DNA of 64,000 nt. It comes from Candidatus Kryptoniota bacterium. Lineage in GTDB: Bacteria; Bacteroidota; Ignavibacteria; Kryptoniales; JAKASW01. The stretch spans positions 274,569-338,568 of the forward strand of contig JBMFVE010000002.1 in assembly GCA_049966155.1 (NCBI GenBank). Reading direction: 5' to 3'. The position numbers and the translations under genes were made by a program. Under the pieces are notes generated by a model. It was not told the origin of the DNA and made no database searches. It saw only the letters and a list, made by a program, of their open reading frames with translations. Positions 40,589 to 63,227 of this stretch are shown piece by piece (position 1 is the first letter of the stretch; every line of letters begins with the position of its first letter).

Positions 40589-40622
40589 TCCTTAACCTCT
40601 CTGTAATTTCTTTTAAATGAGT

Positions 40623-41603: not shown

Positions 41604-41617
41604 TTGCTCTACCCTCC

Positions 41618-42619: not shown

Positions 42620-42642
42620 TTATTCCTTTCCTCAGATATTTT

Positions 42643-43509
42643 TTAAAAAACAACCTGTTGTTCTGCATGATATGAACTTCTAACCAGGGGTCCGGATTCA
42701 ACATATTTAAACCCAAGTTCAATCCCGATTTTTTTATATAATTCAAATTCAGAAGGCTTAACATAGCGGTCAATTGGAAGATGGTCTTTTGTGGGTTGCA
42801 GATATTGCCCAATTGTCAGTATATCCACTTTTACCTCACGCAAATCCTTCATAACCTCAATGACCTCATCATAACGTTCACCAATTCCCACCATCATTCC
42901 GCTTTTAGTAACCAATCCCTTTTCCTTAAAAAACTTTAAAACATCAAGTGACCGTTCGTATTTTGCCTGAGGTCTTACAAGGCTGTAAAGCCGTGGGACA
43001 GTTTCAACATTATGATTAAGGATATCAGGTCCAGCATCAGCAACGATGCTACAGGCAACCTCGTCGCCTTTGAAGTCGGGTATTAAAACTTCCACCCGAC
43101 AGGCATGGTTTTTTATTCTTATTTGTCTGATAGTCTCAGCAAAAATTCCTGCACCACCATCATTTAGCTCATCTCTGTTAACTGAGGTTATTACAACGTG
43201 CCTCAGTTTCATTGAGGCAACAGCTTCTGCAACCCTGCGTGGCTCGTCAGTATCCAGCTGGACAGGTCGACCGGTTTTAACTGCACAAAAGCCGCAGCTG
43301 CGGGTACAAACATCTCCAAGGATCATAAAAGTTGCTGTACCATGCCCCCAGCATTCACCTAAATTTGGACATCGAGCTTCTTCACAAACAGTGTGCAACT
43401 GTTTGCTCCTCATCAAATTCAAAATTTGCGAGTAGTTTTCACCATACGGTAATTTTGCACGTATCCAGTCTGGCCGGCGCGGTAGTTTCTTTTCTGTTAT
43501 ATCCATCAT
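42643..43509 (-). CDS. lipA: Lipoyl synthase
   Basis: [13 protein letters not shown] and the radical-SAM motif [10 protein letters not shown]. Confidence 0.93.
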
Positions 43510-44786: not shown

Positions 44787-44796
44787 TGGATTCTCC

Positions 44797-46881: not shown

Positions 46882-47590
46882 GTTCTTTCTCCATATTTAT
46901 ATGAAAATGTTCCATGAAATTGCTTAATTCATAGGTTACAAACTCAGATTGAAATACATCTTGAAAAGCAGCAGCAACCAATGATTTTACCTGATTCATA
47001 TCGACTTCTTTTCGCAATACTTTCGAGAGTGACGTAACCCCCTTGTGAAAAATTCCACATGGAATAATTCTTTCGAAGTAAGATAAATCGGTGTTCACGT
47101 TGAACGCAAATCCATGCATTGTCACCCACCTGCTGACTTTAATACCAATAGCGCATATCTTTTCATCGCCGACCCAGACACCTGTGTAATCCAAATCACG
47201 CCTGCCGATAATACCAAATGACTGAAGCGTACGTATTACAACATCTTCCAGACCACGAATGTACCTGTGAACATCAGCTTTATCCCGACTTAAATCGAAA
47301 ATTGGATAAGCAACAAGCTGACCAGGACCATGGTAAGTGATATCACCACCTCTGTCCACTTTAAAGACACTCACACCCCTTGCTTTCAGTTCCTCATCTG
47401 ATGCAAGCAGGTGGTCTTCACCACCCGATTTACCAATTGTGTAAGTATGGTGGTGTTCGGTAAATAAAACAACATCAGGGATTGTCCCTGCAGTCCTTTC
47501 TGCATGAAAAAACTTCTGCATTTCCCATGCATGCAGATATTCTGTAAATCCTATGTCTATTATTATTCCTTTATTCACAGGACATTTCAA
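46868..47590 (-). CDS. lipB: Octanoyltransferase (lipoyl(octanoyl) transferase)
   Basis: RGGDITYHGPGQLVAYPI and KICAIGIKV. TTG start in a TTGA overlap with the lpd stop. Confidence 0.85.
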   Translation of the reverse strand: MKCPVNKGIIIDIGFTEYLHAWEMQKFFHAERTAGTIPDVVLFTEHHHTYTIGKSGGEDHLLASDEELKARGVSVFKVDRGGDITYHGPGQLVAYPIFDLSRDKADVHRYIRGLEDVVIRTLQSFGIIGRRDLDYTGVWVGDEKICAIGIKVSRWVTMHGFAFNVNTDLSYFERIIPCGIFHKGVTSLSKVLRKEVDMNQVKSLVAAAFQDVFQSEFVTYELSNFMEHFHINMEKEHASC

Positions 47591-48993
47591 ATATCTATTG
47601 CATGGCCCATGGCGTCCTCAGCCGCCTCTTTAACAGCCTCACTCATTGTTGGGTGTGCATGAATGGTATGAAAAATTTCATAAGGGGTTGTTTCAAGTTT
47701 CTTGGCAACTCCAAGCTCGGCTATCATTTCGGTAGCACTGTTACCAATAATGTGGGCGCCAAGCAGCTCACCATATTTTGCATCAAAAATTAGCTTGACA
47801 AATCCCGTGGTCTCACCGCTGGCAATTGCTTTTCCACTTGCAGTAAATGGAAACCTCCCTATTTTTAATTCATATCCTAACTCTTTTGCCTTTTCTTCAG
47901 TTAACCCAATGCTCGCAACCTGAGGTTGACAATAGGTGCACGCAGGGACGCTGTTATAATCAATATCCTCTGTCTCAACCCCGGCAATTCCTTCGACGCA
48001 TCTTACTCCCTCTGCAGATGCTACATGCGCAAGCCATGGCGGCCCAATTACATCTCCAATTGCATAAATTCCCTTTACACCTGTAGCATAATTTTTCTTA
48101 TCCACTTTTATCCAGGATTTCTCAACCTGTACACCAATTCCCTCAAGATTAAGTCCATCGCTATTTCCCTGAATCCCCACCGCAACAAGAGCAATGTCAG
48201 CGTTAAGTTCACGCCTGCCTTTTACACCATTAATAATAACAGAAACACCATCTCCTTTCGCCGCAGCCGACTCCACTCTGGTTTCTGTCAACACTTCTAT
48301 GTTTTGCTTCCTGAATTCTCTTTCAAGCTGCGCGCTAACCTCTTTGTCCTCAAGAGGGAGTATATTCGGCATCATTTCAAGAAGCGTAACCTTTGTGCCA
48401 AATGCGTTGTAAAAATATGCAAATTCCACTCCAATGGCACCAGCACCGATAATTATCATGCTCTCTGGCACATTTTCAAGAACCATTGCTTCACTGCTTG
48501 TGACGACCCTCTTCCGATCAATCTTTATCCCGGGGAGCTCCTTTGGTCTGGCACCTGTAGAAATAATTATATTATCACCTTCAACCTGTGTCACTTCCTT
48601 CCCTGAGTTGTCAAGCACAGAAATCAAATTTTGAGAGAGAAATTTCCCGGTACCTGAAATCTTTTCAATTTTGTTTTTCTTAAACAAAAATTCTATTCCC
48701 CTTGACAGGCGGTCTGCTGCATCGCGGCTTTTCTTGATAACTTTCTTGAAATCCACATTGAAATTCGAATATGTAAAGCCATATTCTGAGGCATGTTTAA
48801 ATTCCCACATTACTTCTGCACTCCTCAAAAGGGACTTAGTTGGAATACACCCCCAGTTTGTGCAAATTCCTCCAAGCTTAGCCCTTTCTACTACCCCAAC
48901 CCGCATCCCGAGCTGGGCTGCACGTATAGCAGCAACATAGCCCCCGGGACCACCACCCAGTATAACAATGTCAAACTTTTTAGCTTCTGCCAT
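47587..48993 (-). CDS. lpdA: Dihydrolipoyl dehydrogenase (E3)
   Basis: GGGPGGY FAD motif, redox disulfide GGICTNWGCIPTK, C-terminal HAHPTMSE. Confidence 0.93.
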   Translation of the reverse strand: MAEAKKFDIVILGGGPGGYVAAIRAAQLGMRVGVVERAKLGGICTNWGCIPTKSLLRSAEVMWEFKHASEYGFTYSNFNVDFKKVIKKSRDAADRLSRGIEFLFKKNKIEKISGTGKFLSQNLISVLDNSGKEVTQVEGDNIIISTGARPKELPGIKIDRKRVVTSSEAMVLENVPESMIIIGAGAIGVEFAYFYNAFGTKVTLLEMMPNILPLEDKEVSAQLEREFRKQNIEVLTETRVESAAAKGDGVSVIINGVKGRRELNADIALVAVGIQGNSDGLNLEGIGVQVEKSWIKVDKKNYATGVKGIYAIGDVIGPPWLAHVASAEGVRCVEGIAGVETEDIDYNSVPACTYCQPQVASIGLTEEKAKELGYELKIGRFPFTASGKAIASGETTGFVKLIFDAKYGELLGAHIIGNSATEMIAELGVAKKLETTPYEIFHTIHAHPTMSEAVKEAAEDAMGHAIDI

Positions 48994-49228: not shown

Positions 49229-49966
49229 ATGTCAAATAATCATACAGGGTGGCCATTCAACCATGGTGTTCCACCCAGCTACCATACCGAGAAATCACAC
49301 ATACCGGGTGGCGGCATTGTCCGCGAACTGGTTTTTGGAGCCAACGATGGACTTGTTGCTGCTTTTGCAGTAGCATCGGGGGTAAATGGTGCGGGAGTAA
49401 CCAGTAGCATTATTCTCATTGCGGGGCTGGCCGAGCTGATAGGCGGAACAATATCCATGTCGCTGGGCGCTTACCTCTCTACAAAATCACAAATAGAATA
49501 CTATGATGGTGAAATGAAGCGCGAAAGATACGAAGTCGAACAATTTCCTGAGATTGAAAAACAGGAAATTCGAGAAATATATCAGGAAAAGGGATTCCAC
49601 GGTGAAATTCTGGAGAGAATAATCGAACATATAACCTCAGATAAGAATAGGTGGGTTGATATTATGATGAAGGAAGAATTGGGACTTTCACTGGATCAGT
49701 CAATCTCACCAATCAAATCAGCCTCAGCTATTGGAGCAGCTTATGCACTCGGGGCATTTATGCCAATCATTCCCTACATTTTCCTTCAACCGGCAGCTGG
49801 ACTGATCGCAAGTGGACTTCTGACACTTGCCGCTCTCTTCAGTGTTGGTGCTGCAAAGACATTTATCACAGGGAAAAAATTTCTGCGAAGTGGATTTGAG
49901 AGCATGATCATTGGTGGACTTGCAGCAACTGCTACTTTCCTTGCCGGGAAGTTAATTTCACATTAA
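49229..49966 (+). CDS. VIT1/CCC1 family iron/manganese transporter
   Basis: LVFGANDGLV, a central acidic cytoplasmic helix region, and C-terminal TM helices. Confidence 0.8.
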   Translation: MSNNHTGWPFNHGVPPSYHTEKSHIPGGGIVRELVFGANDGLVAAFAVASGVNGAGVTSSIILIAGLAELIGGTISMSLGAYLSTKSQIEYYDGEMKRERYEVEQFPEIEKQEIREIYQEKGFHGEILERIIEHITSDKNRWVDIMMKEELGLSLDQSISPIKSASAIGAAYALGAFMPIIPYIFLQPAAGLIASGLLTLAALFSVGAAKTFITGKKFLRSGFESMIIGGLAATATFLAGKLISH

Positions 49967-51517: not shown

Positions 51518-51574
51518 TCTTTTTGATTTTGTCTTTCAACATTAATTTAATTAAAAACGGCTTCAACTGCATTA

Positions 51575-51608
51575 AATAAAAAAGCCAGGTCTCAAACTTA
51601 GACCTGGC
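51575..51608 (-). terminator. Rho-independent terminator closing the cytochrome operon
   Basis: GCCAGGTCT-7 nt-AGACCTGGC perfect 9-bp stem, followed on the minus strand by TTTTTTATTT. Confidence 0.8.
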
Positions 51609-51637: not shown

Positions 51638-52495
51638 TTACCAGACCGTAAGTTCATGACCATATAAATTTAACTTCCCGTTTATATGCGTGCTATCAAC
51701 CATTGTCCCATTAGAATCTTTCAAGGTTGGATAATGACATTTAAAACATGTTTGAATTGTCTGTCCTTTATGAACAGAATTATTCGGAGGAATTCCATGG
51801 CAAGTACCGCAGGCAGCCTGATCATGACCCCCTGTCCATTTTGGTGAAAAGTTGTTTCCATTCTTGAAATTTCCATGGCAATAAGTGTTGGAGCAACTCA
51901 AGGTCTGAGAATTAAAAAATGGCGCAGGTGAAATGGTGGGCTGGGTGCTGTCATAATACTGACTTGAAGGAGTGTTGGTCGCAACAGTAGATAACCCGGA
52001 AAATGCAACTATTGCCGGGACTCCAAACGGATGGATACCTGGGCCCGCCTTCTGGGGAACAACATGACAGGAACTGCACCTGACACCTGAAGAAATAAAC
52101 CCACCACTGAGATGTACTCTGTGTGCTCCTACTCCCGGGCTTTCTGAACCTGTATTCCCGGACAGATCAACGGGAGGTGCTATTCCTGTGGAGTCTCCGT
52201 GGCATGTGTTGCAGGAGAGTGGTCCATTAATTCCCTGGTGACATGTGTAACAGGACTTTCCAGCTGTACCACCCTTAAAATCATTTCCATGACATGTAGC
52301 ACATGTGGACAAATCGTAGTGATTGTTCTTTATAAATTTGCCATGAAAGTTAGGAGAATTCATATCTGTCCACCCGGCTGGATGTATATCACCCTGGGAG
52401 GGTTGCGGTGCAAGTATGTTTTGCTGAAGCTTGCTGCATCCAGTTAATGAAACAGTGATTAACACCATAAATAAAATCGATAAGTATATTCTCAT
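51638..52495 (-). CDS. Lipoprotein multiheme c-type cytochrome (6 CXXCH + 1 CX4CH)
   Basis: Lipobox LTGC. CATCH, CYTCH, CNTCH, CSSCH, CSNTYCH, CGTCH, CFKCH. The CSNTYCHG...CGTCHG pairing resembles the Geobacter CxxxxCH...CXXCH domain. Confidence 0.85.
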   Translation of the reverse strand: MRIYLSILFMVLITVSLTGCSKLQQNILAPQPSQGDIHPAGWTDMNSPNFHGKFIKNNHYDLSTCATCHGNDFKGGTAGKSCYTCHQGINGPLSCNTCHGDSTGIAPPVDLSGNTGSESPGVGAHRVHLSGGFISSGVRCSSCHVVPQKAGPGIHPFGVPAIVAFSGLSTVATNTPSSQYYDSTQPTISPAPFFNSQTLSCSNTYCHGNFKNGNNFSPKWTGGHDQAACGTCHGIPPNNSVHKGQTIQTCFKCHYPTLKDSNGTMVDSTHINGKLNLYGHELTVW

Positions 52496-52507
52496 TTTTG
52501 CACTCCG

Positions 52508-53758
52508 CTATTTTCTCCCGTGACAGTAACCGCAAAATCCAACGCCCGGGGTACCACCAGGATGGGCATTTGGATCTGTATGACAGGTGTAGCAAACCGC
52601 ACCTGCATCTGTGTGCCAATTTCCATCAACATCGCGCATATAAAAAGCAGAATGAGTTTTGGGATCGTTACCTTTTATACCATCGGGGTCATTATGACAT
52701 GTTACACAGGTGGGATCAGCACCCTGTATATCGTGACAGCTTGCACAACTTTCAATGTCCTTCCGTGCATAAACTGCATGCCTTCCACCTCCACTGCCAA
52801 CTCCAAAAGTTACAAAATCCCCTCCATCATGCCACACAGGTTTAATTCTCTCTCCGTTGGACTCATGGCATTTCACACAAAAGGTTCGCTCATCATGACA
52901 GGTATAGCAATTGCTTTCCCTTCCCTTCGCATCAATTGAATGAGTGAATCTATAATTGAGACTATGAACCCTTTGCACAGTAAGCTTTTTGTGGGTCGTC
53001 AGAGGAGAGAGTGTAGGGGTAGATGGCACATAAATTTGCGCCGGATTTAAATCCTTAGCAAGATTTGCTGCATCGTGGCACTCCTGACATGAAGCTGACG
53101 TGTGACATGACCTGCAATCATTTTGTGCCCCGCTAGCATTTACAAAATTTTTATGCTGTGTGATGAAATCAGAAGATTTGTGAGAAACAGGAATAAGATT
53201 GGCAAGATCCTTATGACAGGTTTCGCACCCGCCAGGCGCAGTTTTTACCAGCGATGCTTGAATTACAGTGTCCCTGGGGGCATTTCTTTCAAGTTGCCCG
53301 TGACAGGTTGTGCAAAGCGACATGCTTGGGAAAGCCCGGGCATCCTGATAAGCATAGTCGAACCTGTTTAGGTCCTGATGACAGGTTTCGCACTTAAGCT
53401 TAAGAGAGCTGTAATGTTCCTTATGTGAAAAATAAACCGTGCTCGATTTTTGAACAAGCTTTCGGTAAGCTGTGCTATCAGTACCAATATGACAGAACTC
53501 ACAGCTCGTAGAGGATTGATCGTGACATGTATAGCATGTCTCCATAGAGGGCATGAGATTATCGGTTTCGCTAATGCTGGAAGTGGCTTTCCCATGGCAG
53601 TCAGTGCATGAAGCTCCTACGTCATTGATATGCAATTTGTGTGAAAACTTAATCAATGAAGAATTGTTCAACTTTGGAGCATTCTTGACCGCAAACAAAT
53701 TTGAAATAGAAAGAAGAGCGACAATTAAAGCTATACTAAAAAAACTTATTTTATTCAT
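52508..53758 (-). CDS. Secreted 14-heme c-type cytochrome (cytochrome c3/c7-type repeats)
   Basis: Signal peptide, 14 CXXCH motifs counted, repeated F-x-H-x2-H...CxxCH pattern. Confidence 0.88.
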   Translation of the reverse strand: MNKISFFSIALIVALLSISNLFAVKNAPKLNNSSLIKFSHKLHINDVGASCTDCHGKATSSISETDNLMPSMETCYTCHDQSSTSCEFCHIGTDSTAYRKLVQKSSTVYFSHKEHYSSLKLKCETCHQDLNRFDYAYQDARAFPSMSLCTTCHGQLERNAPRDTVIQASLVKTAPGGCETCHKDLANLIPVSHKSSDFITQHKNFVNASGAQNDCRSCHTSASCQECHDAANLAKDLNPAQIYVPSTPTLSPLTTHKKLTVQRVHSLNYRFTHSIDAKGRESNCYTCHDERTFCVKCHESNGERIKPVWHDGGDFVTFGVGSGGGRHAVYARKDIESCASCHDIQGADPTCVTCHNDPDGIKGNDPKTHSAFYMRDVDGNWHTDAGAVCYTCHTDPNAHPGGTPGVGFCGYCHGRK

Positions 53759-53759
53759 A

Positions 53760-55064
53760 TCACTCTCCTTTCGAAAACCATGCCAGGTTTCTAAAGAAAT
53801 AATAATTAACCCGTAAGTAGCCTCTCATATCATTGAGATATACCGGATTTCTCAAATATTGAGCCTGAATGTCAAACGACAACAAACTCATTGGTCTGAA
53901 TGTCAACCCGAGAGTCCCACTGTAAATTCTGGTCAAATCTGACTGGCCCTGTAGATACCTGTAATCACTAAAAGACGCAGCACCAATTAAAATTAACTTT
54001 CTATTGAAGAGGGGATACAAAATCTGTGCGCTTACTCCGTTGAGATTGCCAGCAAAACCATCATTGTGGGAATAAGTAATTGAAAAAAGCCGGTAAGTTC
54101 CACCAACAGAAATCTGGGAGGCATTGTCTCCAGTATAATAAACCTTTCCAGCAGAAACGAAAAACGTAATATCGCTTGCAAAGAGGTAGTTCACCCCAAT
54201 ATCATACTCATCTGTTCCACTGTGGTCAAAAACAGAAAAAATTGAATTAAATGGGAGCCTCGAATCCCGGTGGAAATATTCAACATTTAATACAAGAGGG
54301 CGGAATATCGAATATCTGAGTGACGCTTCTGTGCGATTAAACTTTGAAAAATTAAGGTCATAGTCAACCCTCAAATAGCCTGAAGCTTTCTCGTTATAAT
54401 AAAAGATATCTCCAGATACAAACTGATTTGCAACAGACGATGGATCCACCAGAACAGTCCTGACATCCGATGGCGATCCAAGTGTATCCCTTCGCAACGC
54501 ATAGTAGCTTTCGGGCTTAAAGTTTTTATTCACATAGCTTCCTGTAAATGAAAGTCCTTCCACTGGCGAGTATGATGCCTGAGCCCCAATTAAATTGTTG
54601 TTTTTAATGTTGGAATTGATCTTGACAGACTCGTCATAAGGTGGCAGGATACCGCCAAAGAGAGTTATCTTTACCTTATCGTCAATCAATCTGGCATCGG
54701 CACTTAATCCATCTACAGCAGAAACGCCAACACGTGAAAAAACCGGCTGCCTTCCTAATTTCAAGGTGAAAACATCGCCAAGGTTTCTAATCTCGACGTA
54801 CAAATTTGCGGCGCGCAGCCGCGGATCACCACTCAACCTTGTAAGGAAGTCATTTGTTGCAAGAAGGTATGAATGCAATTGATATCTGGAATTTCCGAAA
54901 TTCAACTGCATTGCTTCGTACCCCCGCAAACTCAACTTGCTTGAATTGGTGGTATCATATTGCTGGTATGAGTAGAGAGTTGTGACAAACCTGCCACTAA
55001 ACAACTGCGCGCTCGCTTCACCCGAAAGGAAGAGGAGAAGAGCTAAAAACAGGATCTGTCTCAC
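53760..55064 (-). CDS. Putative outer-membrane beta-barrel protein (no heme motifs)
   Basis: GTG start after GGAAGG. Signal peptide MRQILFLALLLFLSGEASAQ. No Cys, alternating hydrophobic/polar strands rich in Y/F/G/N/S, aromatic-rich C-terminal region (RVNYYFF). Confidence 0.6.
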   Translation of the reverse strand: MRQILFLALLLFLSGEASAQLFSGRFVTTLYSYQQYDTTNSSKLSLRGYEAMQLNFGNSRYQLHSYLLATNDFLTRLSGDPRLRAANLYVEIRNLGDVFTLKLGRQPVFSRVGVSAVDGLSADARLIDDKVKITLFGGILPPYDESVKINSNIKNNNLIGAQASYSPVEGLSFTGSYVNKNFKPESYYALRRDTLGSPSDVRTVLVDPSSVANQFVSGDIFYYNEKASGYLRVDYDLNFSKFNRTEASLRYSIFRPLVLNVEYFHRDSRLPFNSIFSVFDHSGTDEYDIGVNYLFASDITFFVSAGKVYYTGDNASQISVGGTYRLFSITYSHNDGFAGNLNGVSAQILYPLFNRKLILIGAASFSDYRYLQGQSDLTRIYSGTLGLTFRPMSLLSFDIQAQYLRNPVYLNDMRGYLRVNYYFFRNLAWFSKGE

Positions 55065-55099
55065 AGTTCACCTTCCTTCATAATTGGGAACGTTAAATT

Positions 55100-55648
55100 T
55101 TACTTTGGAATCGGGTGTGCAATTTGTGCCCACATCTTACTGAAATCAAATCCTTTGAAAGTTGGACTCTTCTTGTTATGGCACTCTTCACATTTCTTCT
55201 GTGCGCTGCCATCTTTAACGGATAGAAGAATTAATCCGTTTTCAGCTGCTTTCTTTCGATCTTTCATAATGCTCATGGTCTTATAGTCGTTTCCTGGCCC
55301 GTGGCATGTCTCACACTGAACACCATCCTGTTTGTTGAACTTAGGACCAAGCAAAGATGCAGGAGCATTGTAAGCAGTAACGTGGCATTCAAGGCATTCT
55401 GGAGATTCTGACGGTTTGCCTTTTACTCCGTGCTCCTTCGCCACTTTTTCAGCTTCAGCAGTGAGGAGCGTCTTATAAGCCTGAGAATGCTTGCTGGCCT
55501 GCCACTTCTGGAACTGTTCTCCCTGTTTGGCAGTCTTGTGACACATTGCGCAGACCTGAACACCTACATATTGGTGCCCGGTTCCAGCGGCGTATGCCAA
55601 TGTAGTCACCATAAATAATGCCGCAATCATCTGAACTGTAGTTTTCAT
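55100..55648 (-). CDS. Periplasmic tetraheme c-type cytochrome (c554-like family)
   Basis: ATG 55648 after GGAGG, signal peptide. CAMCH, CLECH, CETCH, CEECH. The segment CAMCHKTAKQGEQFQKWQASKHSQAY is typical of the c554/multiheme family. Confidence 0.85.
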   Translation of the reverse strand: MKTTVQMIAALFMVTTLAYAAGTGHQYVGVQVCAMCHKTAKQGEQFQKWQASKHSQAYKTLLTAEAEKVAKEHGVKGKPSESPECLECHVTAYNAPASLLGPKFNKQDGVQCETCHGPGNDYKTMSIMKDRKKAAENGLILLSVKDGSAQKKCEECHNKKSPTFKGFDFSKMWAQIAHPIPK

Positions 55649-55685
55649 ATTTTTACCTCCATCTTTTGTTTTGATGCAGCTTATT

Positions 55686-56090
55686 TTATATCTCATAATT
55701 AACTATACACTCATCGCAATAAGTTCTTGTTGGAGATTTTTCCAGCTGTTTTATACCTATGAACTTCCCACACCCCTCACAAATACCAAATAACCCAGAT
55801 TTAATCCTGCTCATTGCCAGTTCCAGCTCTTTCATCTCAGTTTCCTCCTTAATTGCCATTTCACACCTGTAGCCAGGTTCTATCTTGCAACGAGGGTTTT
55901 CCATATCGCACGTACTGCAAATGAATGCCTCACCGCTGGCAATGTTCATTACTGCATCTGGTTCAAGGTACATCACGCGCAAAAGGAATTCCATCCGTCT
56001 CTCTATTATTTTTCTAAAATGCCTGTTCAATTCAGGGTCAATTGTTACCTTTTCCTTCAATGTCATCCTTTCTAACTTTTGCGTTTCCAT
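55686..56090 (-). CDS. DksA/TraR C4-type zinc-finger protein (copy 2) with an extra Cys cluster
   Basis: CEGC-17 aa-CDEC, plus upstream CSTC..C..C. The start is uncertain (ATG 56090 or 56066; track TTG 56141). It overlaps the 3' end of the 892-aa gene by 29-53 nt. Confidence 0.65.
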   Translation of the reverse strand: METQKLERMTLKEKVTIDPELNRHFRKIIERRMEFLLRVMYLEPDAVMNIASGEAFICSTCDMENPRCKIEPGYRCEMAIKEETEMKELELAMSRIKSGLFGICEGCGKFIGIKQLEKSPTRTYCDECIVNYEI

Positions 56091-58716
56091 TGTCAACAAT
56101 GATATCCTCGCCCCCTTTCTCACGAAGACGCTGCAGTTCAAGTGGATGTTCCTTAAACATCTCCTCTTCGCTCAACATTCCAGTAATGCAGGCGGGATTA
56201 AGTGGATACACATCAGGATTAAAAATAACAAAATAAAAATGCCAGACGAGTATCGCCAGTGATGCCAGTACCGCTTCGTAGTAATGTATCAAAGTTGCAG
56301 CATCCATTCCAATCGGTCCAACAATCCCCAGAAAATAATTATTGAACCACAAAATGAATCCCGTTAATCCCATTATTACCGTTCCCCAAATTAATGCGAG
56401 ATACTCAAACTTTTCTATATAACTGAACCGACCCAACTGAGGCTTTTCTTTAGATAGACCCAAATTATATTTAAATACACCTACCAGATCTCTTAAATCC
56501 TGTACCTTCGGGATCATATCAATAACAAATTTCCTTCCACGTTCTGTAAAAATTACATAAAAAATGTGATAAATGGCATCCGCAATAAGTATAACAGCTG
56601 CTACCCTGTGAATTACCCCACGAAGTTCGACAAAGTTGTTACCAAAAATGTCCCTTATTGGCTTAACCCACCATGAGTCTGGAAATTTTAGCATAAAACC
56701 GGTTACCACAAGGGTAATAAAACTCAGCAACAATAATAAATGTTGTATCCGTTCGTTCAGTGTCATTCTCAAGTAAAGTTTATAACCGGTCGACCAGGTT
56801 GTGTCATACCCTCTTTGATGACGCATTCTTCTAATGACTTTCTTTGTGAAGTCTAAAACATTATGAAAAACCATCATCCCAATTGTGCCTATAATAAGTA
56901 CGATATATATCTGCGATATCCAGAAAAGGAGAGGTTCTTTTCTGGATGAAGGAAGTACATGAACTTGGCCTGCTACAAATCTTTTATCCGCTCCCGGATG
57001 GCATTTCCCGCATGTCGATGCGAGATTCTTGGGATTTATTGGAGATGTTGGATCAGACGATGGCTTTATGTCGTGAGCACCATGACAACTTGCACAGTTT
57101 GCGACAGTTGCCGACCCTCCCTGCATAGCCAATCCGTGATAGCTGTCCAGGTAACTAACTACAGCGTGTGAAGGCAACTTATACCTGGATGTCAACTGTA
57201 CGGAGCCATGGCACTGAGAACATGCGCGCGCCACATTGACATTGGATACAGTTGACTGTGGATTCCCAGGCGATAATATCTGATGCATCCCGTGGCAATC
57301 AGTACAAACAGGAGCATCCTTATTCCCTGCAACAAGTGCCTCCCCATGAATTCCTTTCATATATTTTGTAAAAACCTCGTCATGACAACCGGCCTGTCCA
57401 CATGTCCCCGGGATATTGTTTTTAAAGACCTTCGAGTCAGGATCACCTGCAGGCAGCATATCATGTGCACCATGACAGTCACTGCAGGTAGCCGCTTTCA
57501 AGTTTCCCCTCGAAAGGGCAACCATATGGACACTGTTTTTTATGCTTAGCAGGAAGGCCGCAGATACTCCCGTCATATTCAGCACTTCTTTATTTTCGAC
57601 GTGACACTTCAGACATAAATTGGGCTCGTTGGCACGACTTGTTGGTGCATTTGGATTCCTTATAGATTCAATTGAATGCTCTTCATGACAATCTGTGCAC
57701 ACCGGAGCATACTTAATCCCATGTAAAAGAGCTTTACCATGGGAGGATTTCAAATAGTGTTCCTCAACATCACTATGGCATTTCCCGCATGTTCTTACAA
57801 TATTTGCTCGATTCACACTCGATGTCGGATCATTTGCAGGCTTAATAGTATGACCTTCGTGACAATCTACACAGGTAGCTCCTTTTTGATTCTTATTGAG
57901 AAGATCTGCATGAATGCTGTGAGAATATTGCTCTACCAGTGAAGTAAGTTGAACCCCGCCGGTTGATTTCATCCCTTTAAAAAGCTTCTGATTCGTGTGA
58001 CACTTAAAACATGCGTTTTTTGAGATTTCCCTGGAATCATTAACGGTTCTATGTGCCGTGTGACATGTCACACATGTAAGCACTCCATCAGCAAGCGGTA
58101 TTTTATGGATCCCCGCTGCTACCGCTGCACTGTCAGATTTGTGGCATGTCGAACACATCCTGGTTTGATCTTGAGGAAGGATGTTTTTCACCACCTGAAC
58201 TTTATGAGCTTTCAAATGGCATGATTCACATGAAAATAAAGAGTCGGCAACCTTCACACCGGAATGCCGTGAAGTGAGATATGACTTCTCTCTTTGATGG
58301 CATTTTAAGCAAAACTGAGCCGAAGCAAGTTTTTCAGGCGGATAAATATCATGGGTACCATGACAACCAGAGCAGCTAACTTTTTCGTGTGCAAATTTCG
58401 ACCGTTCAACCCTGGAAGTACCGAATTTAACATCGTGGCAATTATTGCAATTAACTGTTAAAACCCCCTTACTGTGTGGAATTGAATCTGGATTAAAACC
58501 AACATGACAATCCACACAGGCTAATTCACCGTGAACTGATGAATCGAAAATTTTCGAATCGACATAGAGACTTAATTCCTTCCCGTTCCTTTTGGTTGTG
58601 AGGGAGCTGTCAGAATGGCAGACAAGGCAGTCATTATTTCCCTCTGGAAATCCAGCCTGTGAGGTTAAAATAAGAATGAAAACGATTTCGACAATTCTAA
58701 AATAGTTTTTAATCAT
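56038..58716 (-). CDS. 19-heme c-type cytochrome fused to a C-terminal 4-5 TM cytochrome-b (HydC/FdnI-like) module
   Basis: Signal/anchor. 18 CXXCH + 1 CX4CH (CGQAGCH) in aa 30-575. aa ~595-840 holds five hydrophobic helices with conserved His (IQH, IHR..YH, IH..WH). Confidence 0.88.
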   Translation of the reverse strand: MIKNYFRIVEIVFILILTSQAGFPEGNNDCLVCHSDSSLTTKRNGKELSLYVDSKIFDSSVHGELACVDCHVGFNPDSIPHSKGVLTVNCNNCHDVKFGTSRVERSKFAHEKVSCSGCHGTHDIYPPEKLASAQFCLKCHQREKSYLTSRHSGVKVADSLFSCESCHLKAHKVQVVKNILPQDQTRMCSTCHKSDSAAVAAGIHKIPLADGVLTCVTCHTAHRTVNDSREISKNACFKCHTNQKLFKGMKSTGGVQLTSLVEQYSHSIHADLLNKNQKGATCVDCHEGHTIKPANDPTSSVNRANIVRTCGKCHSDVEEHYLKSSHGKALLHGIKYAPVCTDCHEEHSIESIRNPNAPTSRANEPNLCLKCHVENKEVLNMTGVSAAFLLSIKNSVHMVALSRGNLKAATCSDCHGAHDMLPAGDPDSKVFKNNIPGTCGQAGCHDEVFTKYMKGIHGEALVAGNKDAPVCTDCHGMHQILSPGNPQSTVSNVNVARACSQCHGSVQLTSRYKLPSHAVVSYLDSYHGLAMQGGSATVANCASCHGAHDIKPSSDPTSPINPKNLASTCGKCHPGADKRFVAGQVHVLPSSRKEPLLFWISQIYIVLIIGTIGMMVFHNVLDFTKKVIRRMRHQRGYDTTWSTGYKLYLRMTLNERIQHLLLLLSFITLVVTGFMLKFPDSWWVKPIRDIFGNNFVELRGVIHRVAAVILIADAIYHIFYVIFTERGRKFVIDMIPKVQDLRDLVGVFKYNLGLSKEKPQLGRFSYIEKFEYLALIWGTVIMGLTGFILWFNNYFLGIVGPIGMDAATLIHYYEAVLASLAILVWHFYFVIFNPDVYPLNPACITGMLSEEEMFKEHPLELQRLREKGGEDIIVDNGNAKVRKDDIEGKGNN

Positions 58717-59027
58717 GTTGAAGTAGAAGATGAGCTATTCTTTTCATTGATCACACTTTCACATGAAGGGCATAACCGCGCTGTAAGGTTCTCCTTTAAG
58801 ATAGCTGAAGGAATATCATGACGGCAGATGACACACTGTCCATATGTTCCTTTCTCAATCATTTTCAACGCAAAAGAAAGTTCATTCAGATTCGGATCAT
58901 CTAACTTACCGCAGGCTTCTAACACCCTGCGTTTTCCTTCCGCTCGAACATTATAGCGTTCCAGCAGGATTAGTGCCATTCTTCCTATTACTAACTTCTC
59001 GAATAACGACAGTTCATCTGGTTTCAT
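58713..59027 (-). CDS. DksA/TraR C4-type zinc-finger protein (copy 1)
   Basis: CVIC-17 aa-CPSC. ATGA overlap with the 892-aa cytochrome start. The track start at 59048 is TTG and I use the ATG at 59027. Confidence 0.65.
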   Translation of the reverse strand: MKPDELSLFEKLVIGRMALILLERYNVRAEGKRRVLEACGKLDDPNLNELSFALKMIEKGTYGQCVICRHDIPSAILKENLTARLCPSCESVINEKNSSSSTST

Positions 59028-59043
59028 TTTAAAAATGCCATAG

Positions 59044-59060
59044 TTCAATCATTGTGCCGA
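59044..59060 (-). promoter_or_regulatory. Sigma-54-like -24/-12 element CGGCAC-N5-TTGA upstream of the cytochrome operon
   Basis: Minus strand reads TCGGCACAATGATTGAA, ending 17 nt before the ATG at 59027. A sigma-54 activator gene lies 2.9 kb away. Confidence 0.4.
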
Positions 59061-59189
59061 CGATAATGAATCTACACTGCTTAAAATTACACCTGAAAAA
59101 AGCATTTTCACACAAATTGTAGAAATGGGTGCAGGTCACTGAGGAAAAAGTGTGGTTATATTTCTCATAGTGTGCGAAATCTTACCTCA

Positions 59190-59238
59190 ATCAACAAAAG
59201 GCTGCTGCCGGAGTCAGATGTGGGAACTCCGGCAGCAG
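59190..59238 (-). terminator. Rho-independent terminator (or protein-binding inverted repeat)
   Basis: Perfect 13-bp stem CTGCTGCCGGAGT-11 nt-ACTCCGGCAGCAG, followed on the minus strand by CCTTTTGTTGATT. Confidence 0.6.
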
Positions 59239-59269
59239 AAGGAGGAGGAAAGAGGAGAATCTACAGATT

Positions 59270-59348
59270 AAAAAAAGAGTTTGGGCCACCTGAGTTTGGC
59301 AGTGTCTTCCCCTGAGCGAGCTGTTATCTCATAAAAAGGTGGCCCAAA
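59270..59348 (-). other. Long-loop stem (12-bp arms TTTGGGCCACCT / AGGTGGCCCAAA, 45-nt loop) followed by a T7 run
   Basis: Minus strand reads ...TTTGGGCCACCT-45 nt-AGGTGGCCCAAACTCTTTTTTT. This is either a first terminator-like element downstream of the 59408 ORF or a structured RNA. Confidence 0.4.
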
Positions 59349-59407
59349 AAGCTGATCACTTTCAAGGAAAACCATGAGGGTATCAAAGGCGATGGATTCC
59401 AGTTTCC

Positions 59408-59791
59408 TCATCGCGAAATCCCTTCAGCAGCTTTATTCTCTACTGAGGTTATTTCTTTAATCATATTGTTCAAATTCGACAGGTTCATAGGGGCTTCAGA
59501 ATACACATAAAAGTTTTCTTTCACGGACGGAGTTTCCTCACCACAGCACTGCAGGAGAAAAAGAACATTGCGAGCTAATCCATCCCTGATGACCCATTCA
59601 TAAGAGTCGCCGGGCAAACGGGTTGTTGCAACTATAAGCAATGACACAGGCAATGGAAATGAAACATTCCATTCAACAACCTGGTAGCCCTCACGGCTGA
59701 GGAATTTACTGAGGAGGTCATACATTGCCCTCTCATCTGAGATTATACCAATTTTGCCTGAAAATTGCCTGTCGCTCATCAGATACAACAT
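59408..59791 (-). CDS. Hypothetical small protein, degenerate receiver-like
   Basis: The track start at 59872 is TTG. In-frame ATGs lie at 59791 (after GAGGG) and 59779. The pattern IGIISDE...GYQV...SLLIVATT loosely resembles a CheY fold that lacks the acidic pocket. Confidence 0.4.
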   Translation of the reverse strand: MLYLMSDRQFSGKIGIISDERAMYDLLSKFLSREGYQVVEWNVSFPLPVSLLIVATTRLPGDSYEWVIRDGLARNVLFLLQCCGEETPSVKENFYVYSEAPMNLSNLNNMIKEITSVENKAAEGISR

Positions 59792-59793
59792 TG

Positions 59794-59807
59794 TCAACCC
59801 TCGTGCC
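59794..59807 (-). promoter_or_regulatory. Second copy of the GGCAC-N5-TTGA motif
   Basis: Minus strand reads GCGGCACGAGGGTTGACA, immediately upstream of ATG 59791 and 14 nt upstream of ATG 59779. Confidence 0.3.
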
Positions 59808-60039: not shown

Positions 60040-61908
60040 ATGCTCAGCAGTCTTAGGTCAAAAGTTGCAGTTGGATTTACAGTCCTCGTATCAATTAACG
60101 TCGTGGTAAGCATCTGGTCAATTTATAATTTTAACGAGCTTGCTGATGCAATTGCAACCATGATAAAGCAGAACTATCAAAACATCACGGCTGCTCAATA
60201 TATGGTTGTGGCCTTAGAGAGAGAAAACAGTGCCCAGCTTGTGATGCTAAATGGTGATGTCGAAGGGGGACTGGCTCAGTTTAACGACAACCACGCCAAC
60301 TTCTTAAACTGGTTTTCACAGGCATCTGCTTCCGCTGTTCCCGATGGTGGAGAACAGGTCTTATCCAAAATTCAGTATATGTACAAAAGATATACAGCGG
60401 CAACAGACTCCCTTGTTATGATTATCAGGAAATATGGACTGATGAACGGCCAGAACTATCACTATATGAAGATTCTTCCTTTGTTTACACAACTTAAGGA
60501 ATCCTGTTTTCAACTCCTTGACATGAACCACAATGCAATGATTGAAACCGATACCAAGGCGCACAACATAGCGAACCAGGCTACCGTGGCTGTAATCGGA
60601 GCCTCATTAATCGCCATTATACTCAGCATTGTTGCCAGCTGGCAGTTCTCTCAGTATATAATTGAACCGGCTGAGAAACTTACCGAAACCGTACGCAAAA
60701 TTGGAAGAGGAATCCTGGATGCACGAGCAGATGAAAGTACAAATGATGAAATAGGTGAACTGAGCCGGGAGTTCAATAAAATGACGGCTCGCCTGCGCAA
60801 ATATGACGAAATCAATGTTGAAAAACTTGTTTCAGAAAAGAAAAAATCTGAGGCAATTGTAGCTACAATATCTGACCCAATAATTGTGACGGACTCCCAG
60901 GGGAGGATAGTCCTTCTAAACGAACTGGCTGAACTCCTCTTTAACGTTACAGAAGAGGAGGCTATGGAAAAGATGTTTGGGGAGGTTGTAAAAAATGAAC
61001 AGCTTTCAGGCTATGTCCGCCGTTGTCTGGATGGAGAGCTCAGTCCGAACATTCCTCCATATTTTGAATTAAAATTTCAGAATGAAGTCCGTTACTTCAG
61101 GATAAAAATTAACCATGCCACGGATAAATCTGGCAGGGTCACCGGATGTGTACTTATTCTCCAGGACGTTACACAGTTTAAAGAGCTCGACAGAATGAAA
61201 TCAGAATTTATGGCACGCGTCTCACATGAGTTCCGAACACCGCTGACATCAATTAACATGACAATTGACATACTTAAGGACGAGCATGTTGGTAAGGTAA
61301 ATGACCACCAGAGAGAGCTTCTTATTGCTGCAAAACAGGATGCGGAAAGATTGACCAAATTGGTCCGCGACCTGCTTGAACTTTCCAGATTGCAGTCGGG
61401 CCGAATACAACTTAAAGAGGATGTAATTACTGCAGGCTATCTTATTGATTTTTCAATCCAGCCAATCCTGTTGCAGTTTCATGATAAAAATGTAAACCTT
61501 ACAAAAACTGTCGACCCTGCAATTCCACCGTTTAAAGGCGACCTGCAACAGCTTTCCTGGGTCATCTCTAACCTTGTTACAAATGCCCTTCGGTTTACCA
61601 ATCCAGAAGGATCGGTGGATATTACAGCTTCGTTTGACGGGCAAAATTTAATCATATCTGTCCGCGACACGGGCAGCGGCATCGATCAGAAGGAGCTTGA
61701 AAAAATTTTCGACAAGTTTGTCCAGCTTGAAGACAGTGGAAGTCCAACCCCTGGCTCTGTTGGACTCGGCCTCTCTATTGCAAAAGAAATTGTTGAACTT
61801 TATGGGGGCCGCATATGGGCAGAAAGTCGGGTCGGCAAAGGTAGCACATTTACATTCACAATTCCTATAAAAGAAAGGATCGTAACAGATAACGTAGAAA
61901 CAATATGA
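60040..61908 (+). CDS. Membrane sensor histidine kinase (periplasmic 4-helix-type sensor, HAMP, PAS, HisKA, HATPase_c)
   Basis: Two TM segments. H-box SHEFRTPLTS, N-box ISNLVTNALRF, DTGSGI, GLGLSIAKEIV. Confidence 0.88.
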   Translation: MLSSLRSKVAVGFTVLVSINVVVSIWSIYNFNELADAIATMIKQNYQNITAAQYMVVALERENSAQLVMLNGDVEGGLAQFNDNHANFLNWFSQASASAVPDGGEQVLSKIQYMYKRYTAATDSLVMIIRKYGLMNGQNYHYMKILPLFTQLKESCFQLLDMNHNAMIETDTKAHNIANQATVAVIGASLIAIILSIVASWQFSQYIIEPAEKLTETVRKIGRGILDARADESTNDEIGELSREFNKMTARLRKYDEINVEKLVSEKKKSEAIVATISDPIIVTDSQGRIVLLNELAELLFNVTEEEAMEKMFGEVVKNEQLSGYVRRCLDGELSPNIPPYFELKFQNEVRYFRIKINHATDKSGRVTGCVLILQDVTQFKELDRMKSEFMARVSHEFRTPLTSINMTIDILKDEHVGKVNDHQRELLIAAKQDAERLTKLVRDLLELSRLQSGRIQLKEDVITAGYLIDFSIQPILLQFHDKNVNLTKTVDPAIPPFKGDLQQLSWVISNLVTNALRFTNPEGSVDITASFDGQNLIISVRDTGSGIDQKELEKIFDKFVQLEDSGSPTPGSVGLGLSIAKEIVELYGGRIWAESRVGKGSTFTFTIPIKERIVTDNVETI

Positions 61909-63227
61909 GTCTTAAAGTTTTGCTGGTTGACGATGAACAAAACATCCTGAGGACCATGACGATTTGCCTTCAATCAATAGGCCTTCAGGTAAATCCAGTT
62001 CCAAATCCGTCCGACGCGCTGGAACTTGCAAGCAAAGAGCATTTTGATATTGCCTTTCTGGACTTAAAAATGAAGCCAATGGACGGCATTCAATTGATGA
62101 CAGAAATAAAAAAAATAAACCCGGAAATTCTGGTCGTAATTGTAACAGCACACGGATCTATCGATACCGCTGTCGAAGCTATTAAAAAGGGAGCATATGA
62201 TTATCTACAGAAACCTTTTGATTTCCAGGAACTTCAACATTTTACAGAAAAAGTAGTTGAATACTACAACCTCCAAAGAGAGGTAAAAGATCTGCAAAAG
62301 CGGCTGCATGAATATCAAATGCCTGGAGAAATTGTCACAAAGAATCCACATATGCTTCAACTCCTTAACTTATCAAGAGAAGTAGCCGACACAACAATTA
62401 GCGTTTTGCTCCAGGGTGAAAGCGGCACAGGAAAAGAACTGTTTGCAAAGTTTATCCACGATTCAAGCTCCCGCAAAGACAAACCATTCGTGACAGTAAA
62501 TTGCGCTGCCCTTTCAGAAAACCTCCTTGAAAGTGAACTTTTTGGACATGTAAGAGGAGCTTTTACAGGAGCAGTTAAAGACAGAGAAGGAAGATTCGAA
62601 CTGGCTGATGGTGGGACAATCTTCCTCGACGAGATAACTGAAATCCCGACCACGACTCAAGCAAAGCTGCTAAGATTTCTTCAGAGCAGAGAATTTGAAC
62701 GCGTTGGTGATTCACAAACTCGGAGAGTGGATGTGAGATTTATATCTGCCACAAACCGCGACTTGAATGAAGCGCTCACGTCCGGGAAACTTCGGGAAGA
62801 CCTTTATTATCGTATCAATGGTGTCACCATCAAGCTTCCACCTCTTCGTGAGCGTCCGGAGGACATCCCCCTGCTGATCAAACATTTCATTAGAAAATTT
62901 TCACAGGGTTCTGAACCAGATATTTCTGCAGAAGCATTTAAGCTTTTAATAAATTATCAATGGCCAGGAAATGTCCGACAGTTAGAAAACGTCATGGAAA
63001 GAGCTGTTCTCCTTGCCCACGGCAAGCGTATAGAGCCTTACCACCTTCCTGAAGAGATTCAAAATATGAATGTGACGACAAAACGACTCCTTTCCCTGGA
63101 AGAATTGGAGAAGGAGCACATCATTCGCGTTCTCAGAGAAACTGCAACAGCCGAGGAAGCAGCAAGTGTCCTGGGCATTGATCCGGCAACACTCTGGCGT
63201 AAGAAGAAGAAGTATGGAATCAACTGA
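61905..63227 (+). CDS. Sigma-54-dependent response regulator (NtrC family: receiver + AAA+ + Fis-type HTH)
   Basis: ATGA overlap with the kinase. Receiver VLLVDDEQ...FLDLKMKPMDG. Walker A GESGTGKE, GAFTGA loop, FLDEI, PLRERPEDI, C-terminal HTH AASVLGIDPATLWRKKKKYGI. Confidence 0.92.
   Translation: MSLKVLLVDDEQNILRTMTICLQSIGLQVNPVPNPSDALELASKEHFDIAFLDLKMKPMDGIQLMTEIKKINPEILVVIVTAHGSIDTAVEAIKKGAYDYLQKPFDFQELQHFTEKVVEYYNLQREVKDLQKRLHEYQMPGEIVTKNPHMLQLLNLSREVADTTISVLLQGESGTGKELFAKFIHDSSSRKDKPFVTVNCAALSENLLESELFGHVRGAFTGAVKDREGRFELADGGTIFLDEITEIPTTTQAKLLRFLQSREFERVGDSQTRRVDVRFISATNRDLNEALTSGKLREDLYYRINGVTIKLPPLRERPEDIPLLIKHFIRKFSQGSEPDISAEAFKLLINYQWPGNVRQLENVMERAVLLAHGKRIEPYHLPEEIQNMNVTTKRLLSLEELEKEHIIRVLRETATAEEAASVLGIDPATLWRKKKKYGIN

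Follow-up and report, generated by a model that had tools for sequence, protein, structure and literature searches.

Trans-envelope electron conduits are operationally defined by three elements: an outer-membrane β-barrel, a periplasmic multiheme cytochrome with 5 to 14 or 15 hemes, and at least one outer-membrane redox lipoprotein (PMC6148476, PMC4245776). In Ignavibacterium album, the genes IALB_1837-1840 were published in 2014 as the porin-cytochrome (pcc) cluster of this organism, located by BLAST searches that started from Geobacter proteins (Shi, Fredrickson and Zachara, PMC4245776). IALB_1838, with 400 amino acids (aa) and 14 hemes, is the largest periplasmic cytochrome among the Pcc proteins, IALB_1837 is an outer-membrane cytochrome with an atypical motif, IALB_1840 is an associated periplasmic cytochrome, and neither IALB_1839 nor IALB_1838 is more than distantly related to other Pcc proteins (PMC4245776). 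Here, we analyze a seven-gene operon in a 64,000-nucleotide (nt) stretch of DNA from a Candidatus Kryptoniota bacterium (assembly GCA_049966155.1, contig JBMFVE010000002.1, positions 274,569 to 338,568; henceforth, the window). An earlier reading of this DNA (the original prediction) had proposed a four-tier membrane-to-surface electron conduit of a distinct, undescribed architecture in a non-proteobacterial genome. Kryptoniota is indeed a phylum of the Fibrobacteres-Chlorobi-Bacteroidetes (FCB) group, and a four-tier conduit is also our best reading of the operon; its architecture, on the other hand, has precedents in I. album (IALB_1840-1837) and in Ca. Kryptonia.

For Ca. Kryptonia, a gene cluster for iron respiration that includes pfam09698 and pfam14522 cytochromes was proposed in 2016 and termed "similar, yet non-homologous" to Mtr (Eloe-Fadrosh et al., PMC4737851, Supplementary Fig. 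8). Similar clusters have been reported in Melioribacter and in Ignavibacteria metagenome-assembled genomes (MAGs) of iron springs and bioanodes (PMC6137239, PMC7399161); a multi-omics paper on Melioribacter (PMC5492636) makes no mention of multiheme, porin, ferrihydrite or outer membrane. We found no paper joining Kryptoniota with cytochromes and extracellular electron transfer, the cluster proposal standing in the discovery paper of the phylum. At the inner membrane, proteins of the CbcL/MtrH/MtoC family combine 3-23 N-terminal CxxCH motifs with a cytochrome b of 4-6 transmembrane (TM) helices; they occur in 15 phyla, comprise 416-1034 residues and are in some cases encoded beside mtrAB (Zhong and Shi, PMC6295460). 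The quinol/quinone activity of CbcL was uncharacterised as of that publication. Dester_0351 and Theam_0871, inner-membrane c-heme proteins with weak similarity to the cytochrome b of formate dehydrogenase, are encoded beside pcc clusters (PMC4245776).

A seven-gene operon for a predicted porin-cytochrome conduit

We consider it likely that the operon is under sigma-54 control and encodes a Pcc-type trans-envelope electron conduit, of a subtype that belongs to Ignavibacteria, Kryptoniota and related FCB bacteria. In the mechanism we propose, menaquinol would be oxidised at the FdnI-like diheme cytochrome b of an 892-aa protein, and the electrons would pass along the 19 periplasmic c-hemes of the same protein to a soluble c554-type tetraheme cytochrome and on to a 14-heme cytochrome in the lumen of a 22-24-strand barrel. 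A 7-heme lipoprotein at the outer face would then reduce an extracellular acceptor unable to enter the cell, with Fe(III)/Mn(IV) oxides, humics, sulfur species or a partner cell as candidates. All four tiers are found in one locus, as had been predicted: a quinol-dehydrogenase-type cytochrome, a tetraheme cytochrome, a barrel with a 14-heme cytochrome, and a lipoprotein are encoded between one promoter-like site and one terminator. As judged by its genes, the locus encodes a well-preserved candidate porin-cytochrome conduit of a known type, a type so far only predicted.

Seven co-oriented open reading frames (ORFs) occupy the minus strand from 59027 to 51638, with the tight spacing described in the original prediction, and the NCBI gene calls on the source contig concur (104, 892, 124, 182, 434, 416 and 285 aa). 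The stop of the first gene and the start of the 892-aa gene are spaced by -4 nt. The 892-aa gene overlaps the third gene, which encodes a second small DksA-like protein, by 23-53 nt, varying with the start chosen for the latter; conservation favours the ATG at 56066, giving an overlap of 29 nt. The remaining gaps are +37 nt (second DksA-like gene to tetraheme gene), +35 nt (tetraheme to barrel), +1 nt (barrel to 14-heme) and +12 nt (14-heme to lipoprotein). The operon is closed by an intrinsic terminator on the same strand (51574-51608), also noted before, in which a GC-rich 9-bp stem (51608-51584) is followed by a U-tract, UUUUUUAUUU (free energy -16.6 kcal/mol, z -4.0). Our motif count reproduced the 44 c-heme motifs of the operon and their split of 19/4/14/7, where the counts of 19 and 7 each contain a single atypical Cx4CH motif that is conserved in homologues. 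All other ORFs of at least 130 aa in the window are devoid of CxxCH, so that the 44 motifs are far beyond chance, and chance occurrence can be ruled out.

The 892-aa protein (56038-58716, minus strand) has a signal peptide and is a putative inner-membrane quinol dehydrogenase, as indicated by its heme motifs, a PF01292 match and TM helices. Its 18 CxxCH motifs and one Cx4CH motif lie within residues 30-573 and are all conserved among 26 homologues. The membrane module comprises five hydrophobic helices (residues 596-621, 660-678, 701-723, 773-791 and 806-832), matches PF01292 above the cut-off (E = 2e-14) and TIGR01583, formate dehydrogenase gamma, with E = 3.5e-13, and contains six histidines (618, 659, 703, 717, 811 and 826) that are invariant in 25-26 of the 26 homologues, in agreement with the five-helix, His-rich module that had been predicted. 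A tail of residues 833-892 with a conserved His857 follows the last helix and would be cytoplasmic. By these features the protein has the CbcL/MtrH/MtoC architecture, in which a multiheme domain is joined to an FdnI/HydC-type diheme cytochrome b; both hallmarks of that family are present, the N-terminal multi-CxxCH domain and the C-terminal HydC/FdnI-like cytochrome b with His ligands.

The 182-aa protein (198 aa by a longer ORF; 55100-55648, minus strand) is a periplasmic tetraheme cytochrome of the c554 family, with a signal peptide (AYA/AG), four CxxCH motifs, a PF13435 match (E = 7e-21) and similarity to cytochrome c554 in the PDB (1bvb, E = 4e-7). Downstream, the 434-aa protein (53760-55064, minus strand) is a predicted outer-membrane β-barrel that would sheathe the 14-heme cytochrome. 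It has a signal peptide (ASA/QL) and no Cys; the original prediction had pointed to both features and to a strand-like composition, and an AlphaFold2 (AF2) model calculated from a 44-sequence alignment indeed yielded a barrel with 24 β elements (predicted local distance difference test [pLDDT] 82.7). One short pair of elements may be a loop hairpin, and the barrel may thus have 22-24 strands. In the model, short periplasmic turns alternate with long loops, there is no plug domain, the DSSP string lacks an inward-folded constriction-loop helix, and the barrel is larger than classical porins. All Foldseek matches are outer-membrane barrels, the best being the 24-strand usher pores FimD and PapC (TM-score 0.54), ahead of 16-18-strand porins. 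The protein gave no match in Pfam, NCBIfam or PDB sequences, either singly or as a 44-sequence profile; its family assignment therefore rests on fold and synteny. With a large barrel model and no porin or LptD family match, the concern that the protein might not be a barrel, or might be a generic porin or lipopolysaccharide-assembly homologue, does not apply, and a generic porin was also rejected on account of the strict linkage of the barrel gene to cytochrome genes. Within the barrel family, conservation peaks at the invariant NSIFSVFD (residues 273-280, ~54225-54248), which sits in the longest predicted extracellular loop (17 residues). No other part of the mature barrel model has low confidence over an appreciable length, which might point to a partner-dependent conformation.

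The 416-aa protein (52508-53758, minus strand) is a c-type cytochrome whose heme motifs and orthology point to a periplasmic protein that would insert into the barrel. Its 14 CxxCH motifs are all invariant, and 11 invariant and one nearly invariant further His, together with an invariant Met, are candidate distal ligands. Residues ~1-165 resemble the pentaheme ActA/QrcA module in both sequence and Foldseek comparisons. This resemblance is confined to the ~165 N-terminal residues. We rejected an assignment of the locus to alternative complex III or Qrc, as genes for the partner subunits (ActB, ActC or NrfD-like) are absent from the operon and its flanks.

The last gene (51638-52495, minus strand) encodes a 285-aa lipoprotein cytochrome with six CxxCH motifs and one Cx4CH motif, a predicted terminal reductase of the outer surface. 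It matches TIGR01904, the CxxxxCH/CxxCH domain, above the cut-off (E = 5e-12) as well as PF09698. Of the profiles that the original prediction had named, PF01292, PF13435 and TIGR01904 thus all found their target, in the 892-aa, tetraheme and lipoprotein cytochromes, respectively. The lipobox start that it had recognised (LTGC, residues 17-20) is likewise confirmed, its Cys being invariant in 49 of 49 homologues with the pattern [LFI]-x-[SGA]-C-S. Residues +1 to +6 after the lipidated Cys (window positions 52420-52440) read SKLQN in the Kryptoniota clade and S[DE]xx[DE] in Ignavibacteria. Acidic residues after the lipidated Cys are a surface-export signal of Bacteroidota lipoproteins, which the Ignavibacteria pattern recalls.

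The link to I. album was established through one related locus (L002), as the 90%-identity clusters of four of its proteins contain IALB_1840, IALB_1839, IALB_1838 and AFH49543.1 of strain JCM 16511, the last being the product of the next gene and hence, by position, IALB_1837. The window proteins are 50% identical to IALB_1840 (tetraheme, E = 3e-61), 34-35% to IALB_1839 (barrel, E = 1e-62 to 1e-76), 40% to IALB_1838 (14-heme, E = 5e-101) and 36% to IALB_1837 (lipoprotein cytochrome, E = 2e-49). In a scan of one genome per species, relatives of the barrel were found in at least 409 species genomes, and a full HMMER search with the barrel profile retrieved 495 representatives at 50% clustering. 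Among the best 150 of these 495, the ten most distant matches include, as named organisms, Calditrichia and candidate division KSB1 only. In all of the ~80 fetched loci, a 12-14-heme gene lies immediately downstream of the barrel gene, with 14 hemes in nearly all; the gene for the 6+1-heme lipoprotein follows in nearly all complete loci, and a c554-type gene precedes in most. A clade of 25 loci shares the operon of the window, with barrel identities of 56-65%. The comparison of these sequences establishes the parts of the candidate conduit, their predicted localisation signals, their conservation and strict co-occurrence, and their orthology to the I. album pcc cluster.

Inner-membrane modules are swapped among the relatives, which is apparently a new observation. 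No such module is adjacent in Ignavibacterium (L002, L085), a CbcL-like fusion is present in the clade of the window and in two Ignavibacteriales loci (L072, L083), and a Rieske protein with cytochrome b and an 11-heme protein is found in hot-spring Kryptonia (L032, L055) and in a further locus (L037). Such swapping is as expected if the core forms the outer half of a respiratory chain. In six loci (L007, L009, L011, L012, L021 and L022), a 4.7-kb insertion separates the gene of the 892-aa homologue from the second DksA-like gene and encodes a separate cytochrome b (233 aa), a 9-heme protein (343 aa), a 298-aa protein and an 18-heme protein (649 aa). One Ignavibacteriales locus carries CcsA and heme-biosynthesis genes downstream. 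In the flanks of ~8 of the ~85 fetched related loci, those whose flanking genes were inspected, no periplasmic nitrite, sulfite or tetrathionate reductase was found; an association with such reductases, named in the original prediction as a finding that would speak against a conduit, was therefore rejected.

Zinc-finger genes and the sigma-54-type promoter region

The quinol-dehydrogenase gene is flanked by two genes for small proteins with a C4 zinc finger (CxxC-N17-19-CxxC), which is invariant over 21 loci in protein 1 (Dks1) and over 25 loci in protein 2 (Dks2). Dks1 (104 aa; 58713-59027, minus strand), with the motif GQCVICRH...CPSC invariant in the 21 loci, matches NCBIfam DksA_like below the cut-off (E = 1.2e-8) and has no Pfam match. 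Dks2 (~126 aa; 55686-56066, minus strand; 124 aa from 56060 in the NCBI annotation) scores 24.6 bits against the Pfam zf-dskA_traR cut-off of 24.9 and resembles DksA in the PDB (E = 2.5e-6 and 3.3e-6). Both proteins stay below the DksA family cut-offs, the NCBIfam DksA models giving 22-40 bits vs. 105-289, and the conserved columns of either protein lack the acidic DxxDxA motif of the coiled-coil tip with which DksA reaches into the active site of RNA polymerase. Where DksA has this tip, Dks2 has a further conserved Cys4 motif, YIC..CD...KRC...P.YRCE (C-x2-C-x7-C-x8-C). On these grounds the two are best called DksA/TraR-type zinc-finger proteins.

By tblastn on the fetched loci, Dks2 is present in 25 of 25 and Dks1 in 20 of 25 loci of the clade, and no DksA-like genes were detected in fetched loci outside it. 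The distribution of Dks2 was read from these tblastn searches, a word-indexed protein search having given three near-identical matches. In one locus (L086), the public gene caller overlooked Dks2 and called an opposite-strand ORF in its place. The conserved gene pair flanking the quinol-dehydrogenase gene appears to be new. The extra Cys4 site, the overlap or coupling of both genes with the quinol-dehydrogenase gene and the sigma-54-dependent operon might together hint at a dedicated feedback device that reports conduit assembly, redox or metal state to RNA polymerase, an idea we regard as doubtful. If true, the pair would constitute an undescribed regulatory layer for extracellular electron transfer, seemingly confined to one Kryptoniota clade.

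Upstream of the first gene, a pattern search revealed a sigma-54-type promoter-like element, CGGCACAATGATTGAA (59044-59059, minus strand), with the ATG 15-17 nt downstream. GGCAC-N5-TTGA has two matches only in the window, both on the minus strand (59058-59045 and 59807-59794). The operon element is kept at the equivalent position in 15 of 21 related loci, the second site precedes a gene for a 123-aa protein, and both are conserved in most related loci (L003 to L026 compared). The sites lie 15-28 nt upstream of the respective ATG, implying very short leaders; for the operon, transcription would start ~8 nt upstream of the ATG at 59027. An alignment of 14 loci shows, in this order, a terminator-like hairpin (59238-59202), a conserved upstream block and the promoter-like element. 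The block (59151-59188, minus strand), a candidate site for a sigma-54 activator, reads TGTGG-N27-CCACA in relatives and lies ~110 nt upstream of the promoter; its left arm is degenerate in the window (GAGGT). The hairpin (59202-59238, minus strand) marks the 5' boundary of the operon, has a free energy of -26.3 kcal/mol (z -6.2), shows compensatory changes and is kept in all 14 aligned loci.

Two genes divergent from the operon encode, according to Pfam, a HAMP-PAS-HisKA-HATPase sensor kinase (60040-61908, plus strand) and an NtrC-type sigma-54 activator (61905-63227, plus strand). Both are syntenic in 16 of the 25 clade loci, a kinase fragment is present in three more, and most of the others show a contig end or the 4.7-kb insertion. 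An NtrC-type activator, an upstream site and a GGCAC-type element correspond to the textbook organisation of a sigma-54 promoter that depends on an activator. This arrangement suggests that the neighbouring two-component system would control the operon via the sigma-54-type promoter. The conserved promoter and upstream site beside a divergent NtrC-type system likewise seem to be new here, and we found no description of the DksA-like pair or of the sigma-54 control in the conduit literature cited.

The hairpin at the 5' boundary ends an upstream unit that comprises the gene for the small, conserved and cytoplasmic ~123-aa protein (59408-59779, minus strand; own sigma-54-like site at 59794-59807) and, 3' of it and ahead of the hairpin, a 47-aa ORF (59268-59411, minus strand). 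Together they probably make up a sigma-54-dependent unit of their own within the same regulon. The 123-aa protein has no Pfam match; its N-terminal motif, G..TDE.AM..L.KFL.KEGY, is receiver-domain-like by eye. On the other side of the operon, 1.7 kb downstream, lies a VIT1/CCC1-family gene for a putative Fe/Mn transporter (49229-49966, plus strand), and the neighbourhood of HAD hydrolase, UPRTase and VIT1 genes is also kept in L086. Further on (39380-48993, minus strand), we recognised by eye genes for E1 alpha and beta subunits, two lipoyl-E2-like proteins, a lipoyl synthase-like protein, an octanoyltransferase-like protein and an E3-like flavoprotein. This 2-oxoacid dehydrogenase-type gene run is consistent with a heterotrophic lifestyle.

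Direction of electron flow, alternatives and implications

From the parts and their conservation we infer that the proteins form a complex, that its lipoprotein is surface-exposed, and in which direction and to which kind of substrate electrons flow. Several points weigh against the picture of an outward, membrane-to-surface conduit. In every organism, I. album included, the cluster type is known from sequence alone, and the surface exposure of the lipoprotein is a prediction. Moreover, I. album is reported to be unable to reduce solid Fe(III)/Mn(IV) (PMC4245776), so that the acceptor may be something other than iron oxide. For the 14-heme protein, the AF2 model reached a pLDDT of only 60.5, and its sole Foldseek match was the ActA pentaheme module; insertion of this protein in the barrel is proposed by analogy with MtrAB. 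Its pentaheme module is closest to ActA/QrcA, which are inner-membrane-anchored subunits, and its N-terminal helix could be a membrane anchor instead of a cleaved signal peptide. Finally, the -12 element of the promoter-like site is TTGA, the canonical sequence being TTGC.

One alternative keeps the conduit and reverses its direction: Fe(II), a cathode or a syntrophic partner would supply the electrons, and the quinone pool would be reduced by the 892-aa protein, an activity that has been proposed for MtoC in Fe(II) oxidisers. In nitrifiers, members of the c554 family, to which the periplasmic carrier belongs, transport electrons released by a periplasmic oxidation. Fe(III) reducers and Fe(II) oxidisers alike have proteins of the CbcL/MtrH/MtoC family, whose sequences give no clue to the direction (PMC6295460), and the FdnI-type cytochrome b acts as a quinone reductase in formate dehydrogenase (PMC4245776). 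However, no pcc cluster had come to light in a known Fe(II) oxidiser as of PMC4245776, Ca. Kryptonia and Ignavibacteria are described as heterotrophs for which Fe(III) respiration was proposed (PMC4737851, PMC7399161), and the window contains, by eye, pyruvate/2-oxoacid dehydrogenase-type genes and none for autotrophy. We regard inward flow as unlikely, yet as a rival to be reckoned with. An electron-transfer or storage network confined to the periplasm and serving a soluble acceptor, with the 434-aa protein as a co-transcribed ordinary diffusion porin, could draw on the ActA/QrcA-like N-terminus of the 14-heme protein, on the lack of a diagnostic family match for the barrel and on its Foldseek matches, which include 16-18-strand general and substrate-specific porins. 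Yet the genes for the barrel, the 14-heme protein and the lipoprotein remain strict neighbours over phylum-level distances in ~80 loci, the barrel occurs in 409 genomes, exceeds classical porins in size and has no constriction-loop helix, the lipobox is invariant, and the ~8 flanks encode no catalytic reductase, which together render this reading highly improbable.

The novelty claimed in the original prediction, a conduit architecture unrelated to Pcc and Mtr, finds some backing in the lack of similarity to MtrA, MtrB and MtrC models, in the merely distant relationship of IALB_1839 and IALB_1838 to other Pcc proteins (PMC4245776), and in the DksA-like pair and sigma-54 control, which lack a description in the literature cited. 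It is nevertheless largely refuted, as the core genes have orthologues with the same heme counts in the IALB_1837-1840 pcc cluster, similar clusters are on record for Melioribacter, Ignavibacteria MAGs and Ca. Kryptonia (PMC7399161, PMC6137239, PMC4737851), and CbcL-type fusions adjoining conduits had been described (PMC6295460, PMC4245776); we consider it very unlikely to hold. We instead favour a Pcc-type conduit that carries electrons from menaquinol to the cell surface, because heme motifs, signal peptides and lipobox are conserved, the 434-aa protein models as a barrel, the genes are strictly linked and the core is orthologous to the IALB genes. In addition, quinol-oxidising modules vary on a constant core, as a respiratory conduit predicts. 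The ~8 flanks free of periplasmic reductases and the conserved footprint of promoter and activator point the same way, as does the presence of all three elements of the operational definition, with a barrel, a 14-heme cytochrome encoded 1 nt downstream of the barrel gene, and a 6+1-heme lipoprotein.

Our survey shows a single predicted porin-cytochrome design to be widespread and strongly conserved. It combines a tetraheme protein of the c554 type with a barrel of 22-24 strands, a 14-heme cytochrome and a 7-heme lipoprotein, and at least 409 species genomes have it, from Kryptoniota and Ignavibacteria to Calditrichia, KSB1 and other MAGs labelled as Bacteroidota. With I. album, Melioribacteraceae and Rosettibacter as cultured carriers, the FCB-type conduit would be experimentally tractable, and the swapped inner-membrane module and the conserved sigma-54 promoter and upstream site offer handles for expression studies and genetics. 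Such a conduit would bear on metal and humic redox cycling by non-proteobacterial, often heterotrophic bacteria of sediments and the subsurface. We see the value of the locus mainly in how widely the FCB-type conduit is spread, in the existence of cultured carriers and in a regulatory layer of DksA-like proteins and sigma-54 control that seems not to have been described before.

Comparison with described conduits

The closest described system is that of I. album JCM 16511, whose genes IALB_1840-1837 agree with the core of the window in gene order and heme counts (4/0/14/6+1). Their products, of 178, 372-421, 400 and 286 aa, are also similar in size, contrary to the statement in the original prediction that component sizes and heme numbers match no Pcc system. 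Unlike the operon in the window, the I. album cluster, as represented by L002, lacks an adjacent inner-membrane cytochrome, DksA-like genes and a sigma-54 two-component system. The Ca. Kryptonia cluster of the same phylum (L032, L055) encodes a homologous barrel that is 36-38% identical to that of the window, a 14-heme cytochrome and a pfam09698 lipoprotein cytochrome. These hot-spring genera have a Rieske protein, cytochrome b and an 11-heme protein in place of the 19-heme cytochrome-b fusion, and DksA-like genes were not detected in them. With the core published in 2014 and the Ca. Kryptonia cluster proposed in 2016, the architecture as such can no longer be called undescribed.

The 892-aa protein shares with CbcL (GSU0274), MtrH and MtoC, and with Dester_0351 and Theam_0871, the fusion of a periplasmic multiheme c domain to a HydC/FdnI-like cytochrome b, and some of these proteins adjoin mtrAB or pcc clusters. 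The likeness is one of architecture: CbcL has nine c-hemes vs. 19 in the 892-aa protein, a number inside the published range of 3-23, and six TM helices are usual in the family vs. five here, although five-helix members have been reported too. The combination of such a fusion with a conduit is also not new, since members with 3-23 hemes are encoded near mtrAB (PMC6295460) and Dester_0351 near pcc (PMC4245776).

Geobacter OmbB-OmaB-OmcB and ExtABCD/ExtEFG follow the same design of a periplasmic multiheme cytochrome, a barrel and one or more lipoprotein cytochromes (PMC4245776, PMC6148476). The omcB cluster has the same order of barrel, periplasmic cytochrome and lipoprotein genes as the window, and Geobacter also supplied the original definition of the CxxxxCH/CxxCH domain (TIGR01904). 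The heme numbers differ, with 8 + 12 in Omb/Oma/Omc and 12 + 5 + 12 in ExtACD vs. 14 + 7 in the window, and the Geobacter barrels are predicted to have 18-22 strands vs. 22-24. In Geobacter, the genes for CbcL and ImcH lie apart from these clusters; in the window, the gene for the putative quinol dehydrogenase is part of the operon. The sequence relationship to Geobacter Pcc proteins is at best remote, and the link runs through the orthology to IALB_1837-1839.

Shewanella MtrCAB with CymA is alike in principle, as a barrel-threaded cytochrome and a surface lipoprotein cytochrome are fed by a quinol dehydrogenase, but it is not homologous to the core of the window. The DmsE/MtrA model (TIGR03508) gave 21 bits with the 14-heme protein and 93 bits with the 892-aa protein vs. 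a cut-off of 192, the OmcA/MtrC model (TIGR03507) gave 34-37 bits vs. a cut-off of 209, and the barrel had no match to PF11854 (MtrB_PioB) in Pfam. With scores this far under the cut-offs and no porin of the MtrB/PioB family, we rejected membership in MtrCAB. The quinol dehydrogenases differ as well, CymA being a NapC/NirT-type tetraheme protein vs. the cytochrome-b fusion encoded in the window.

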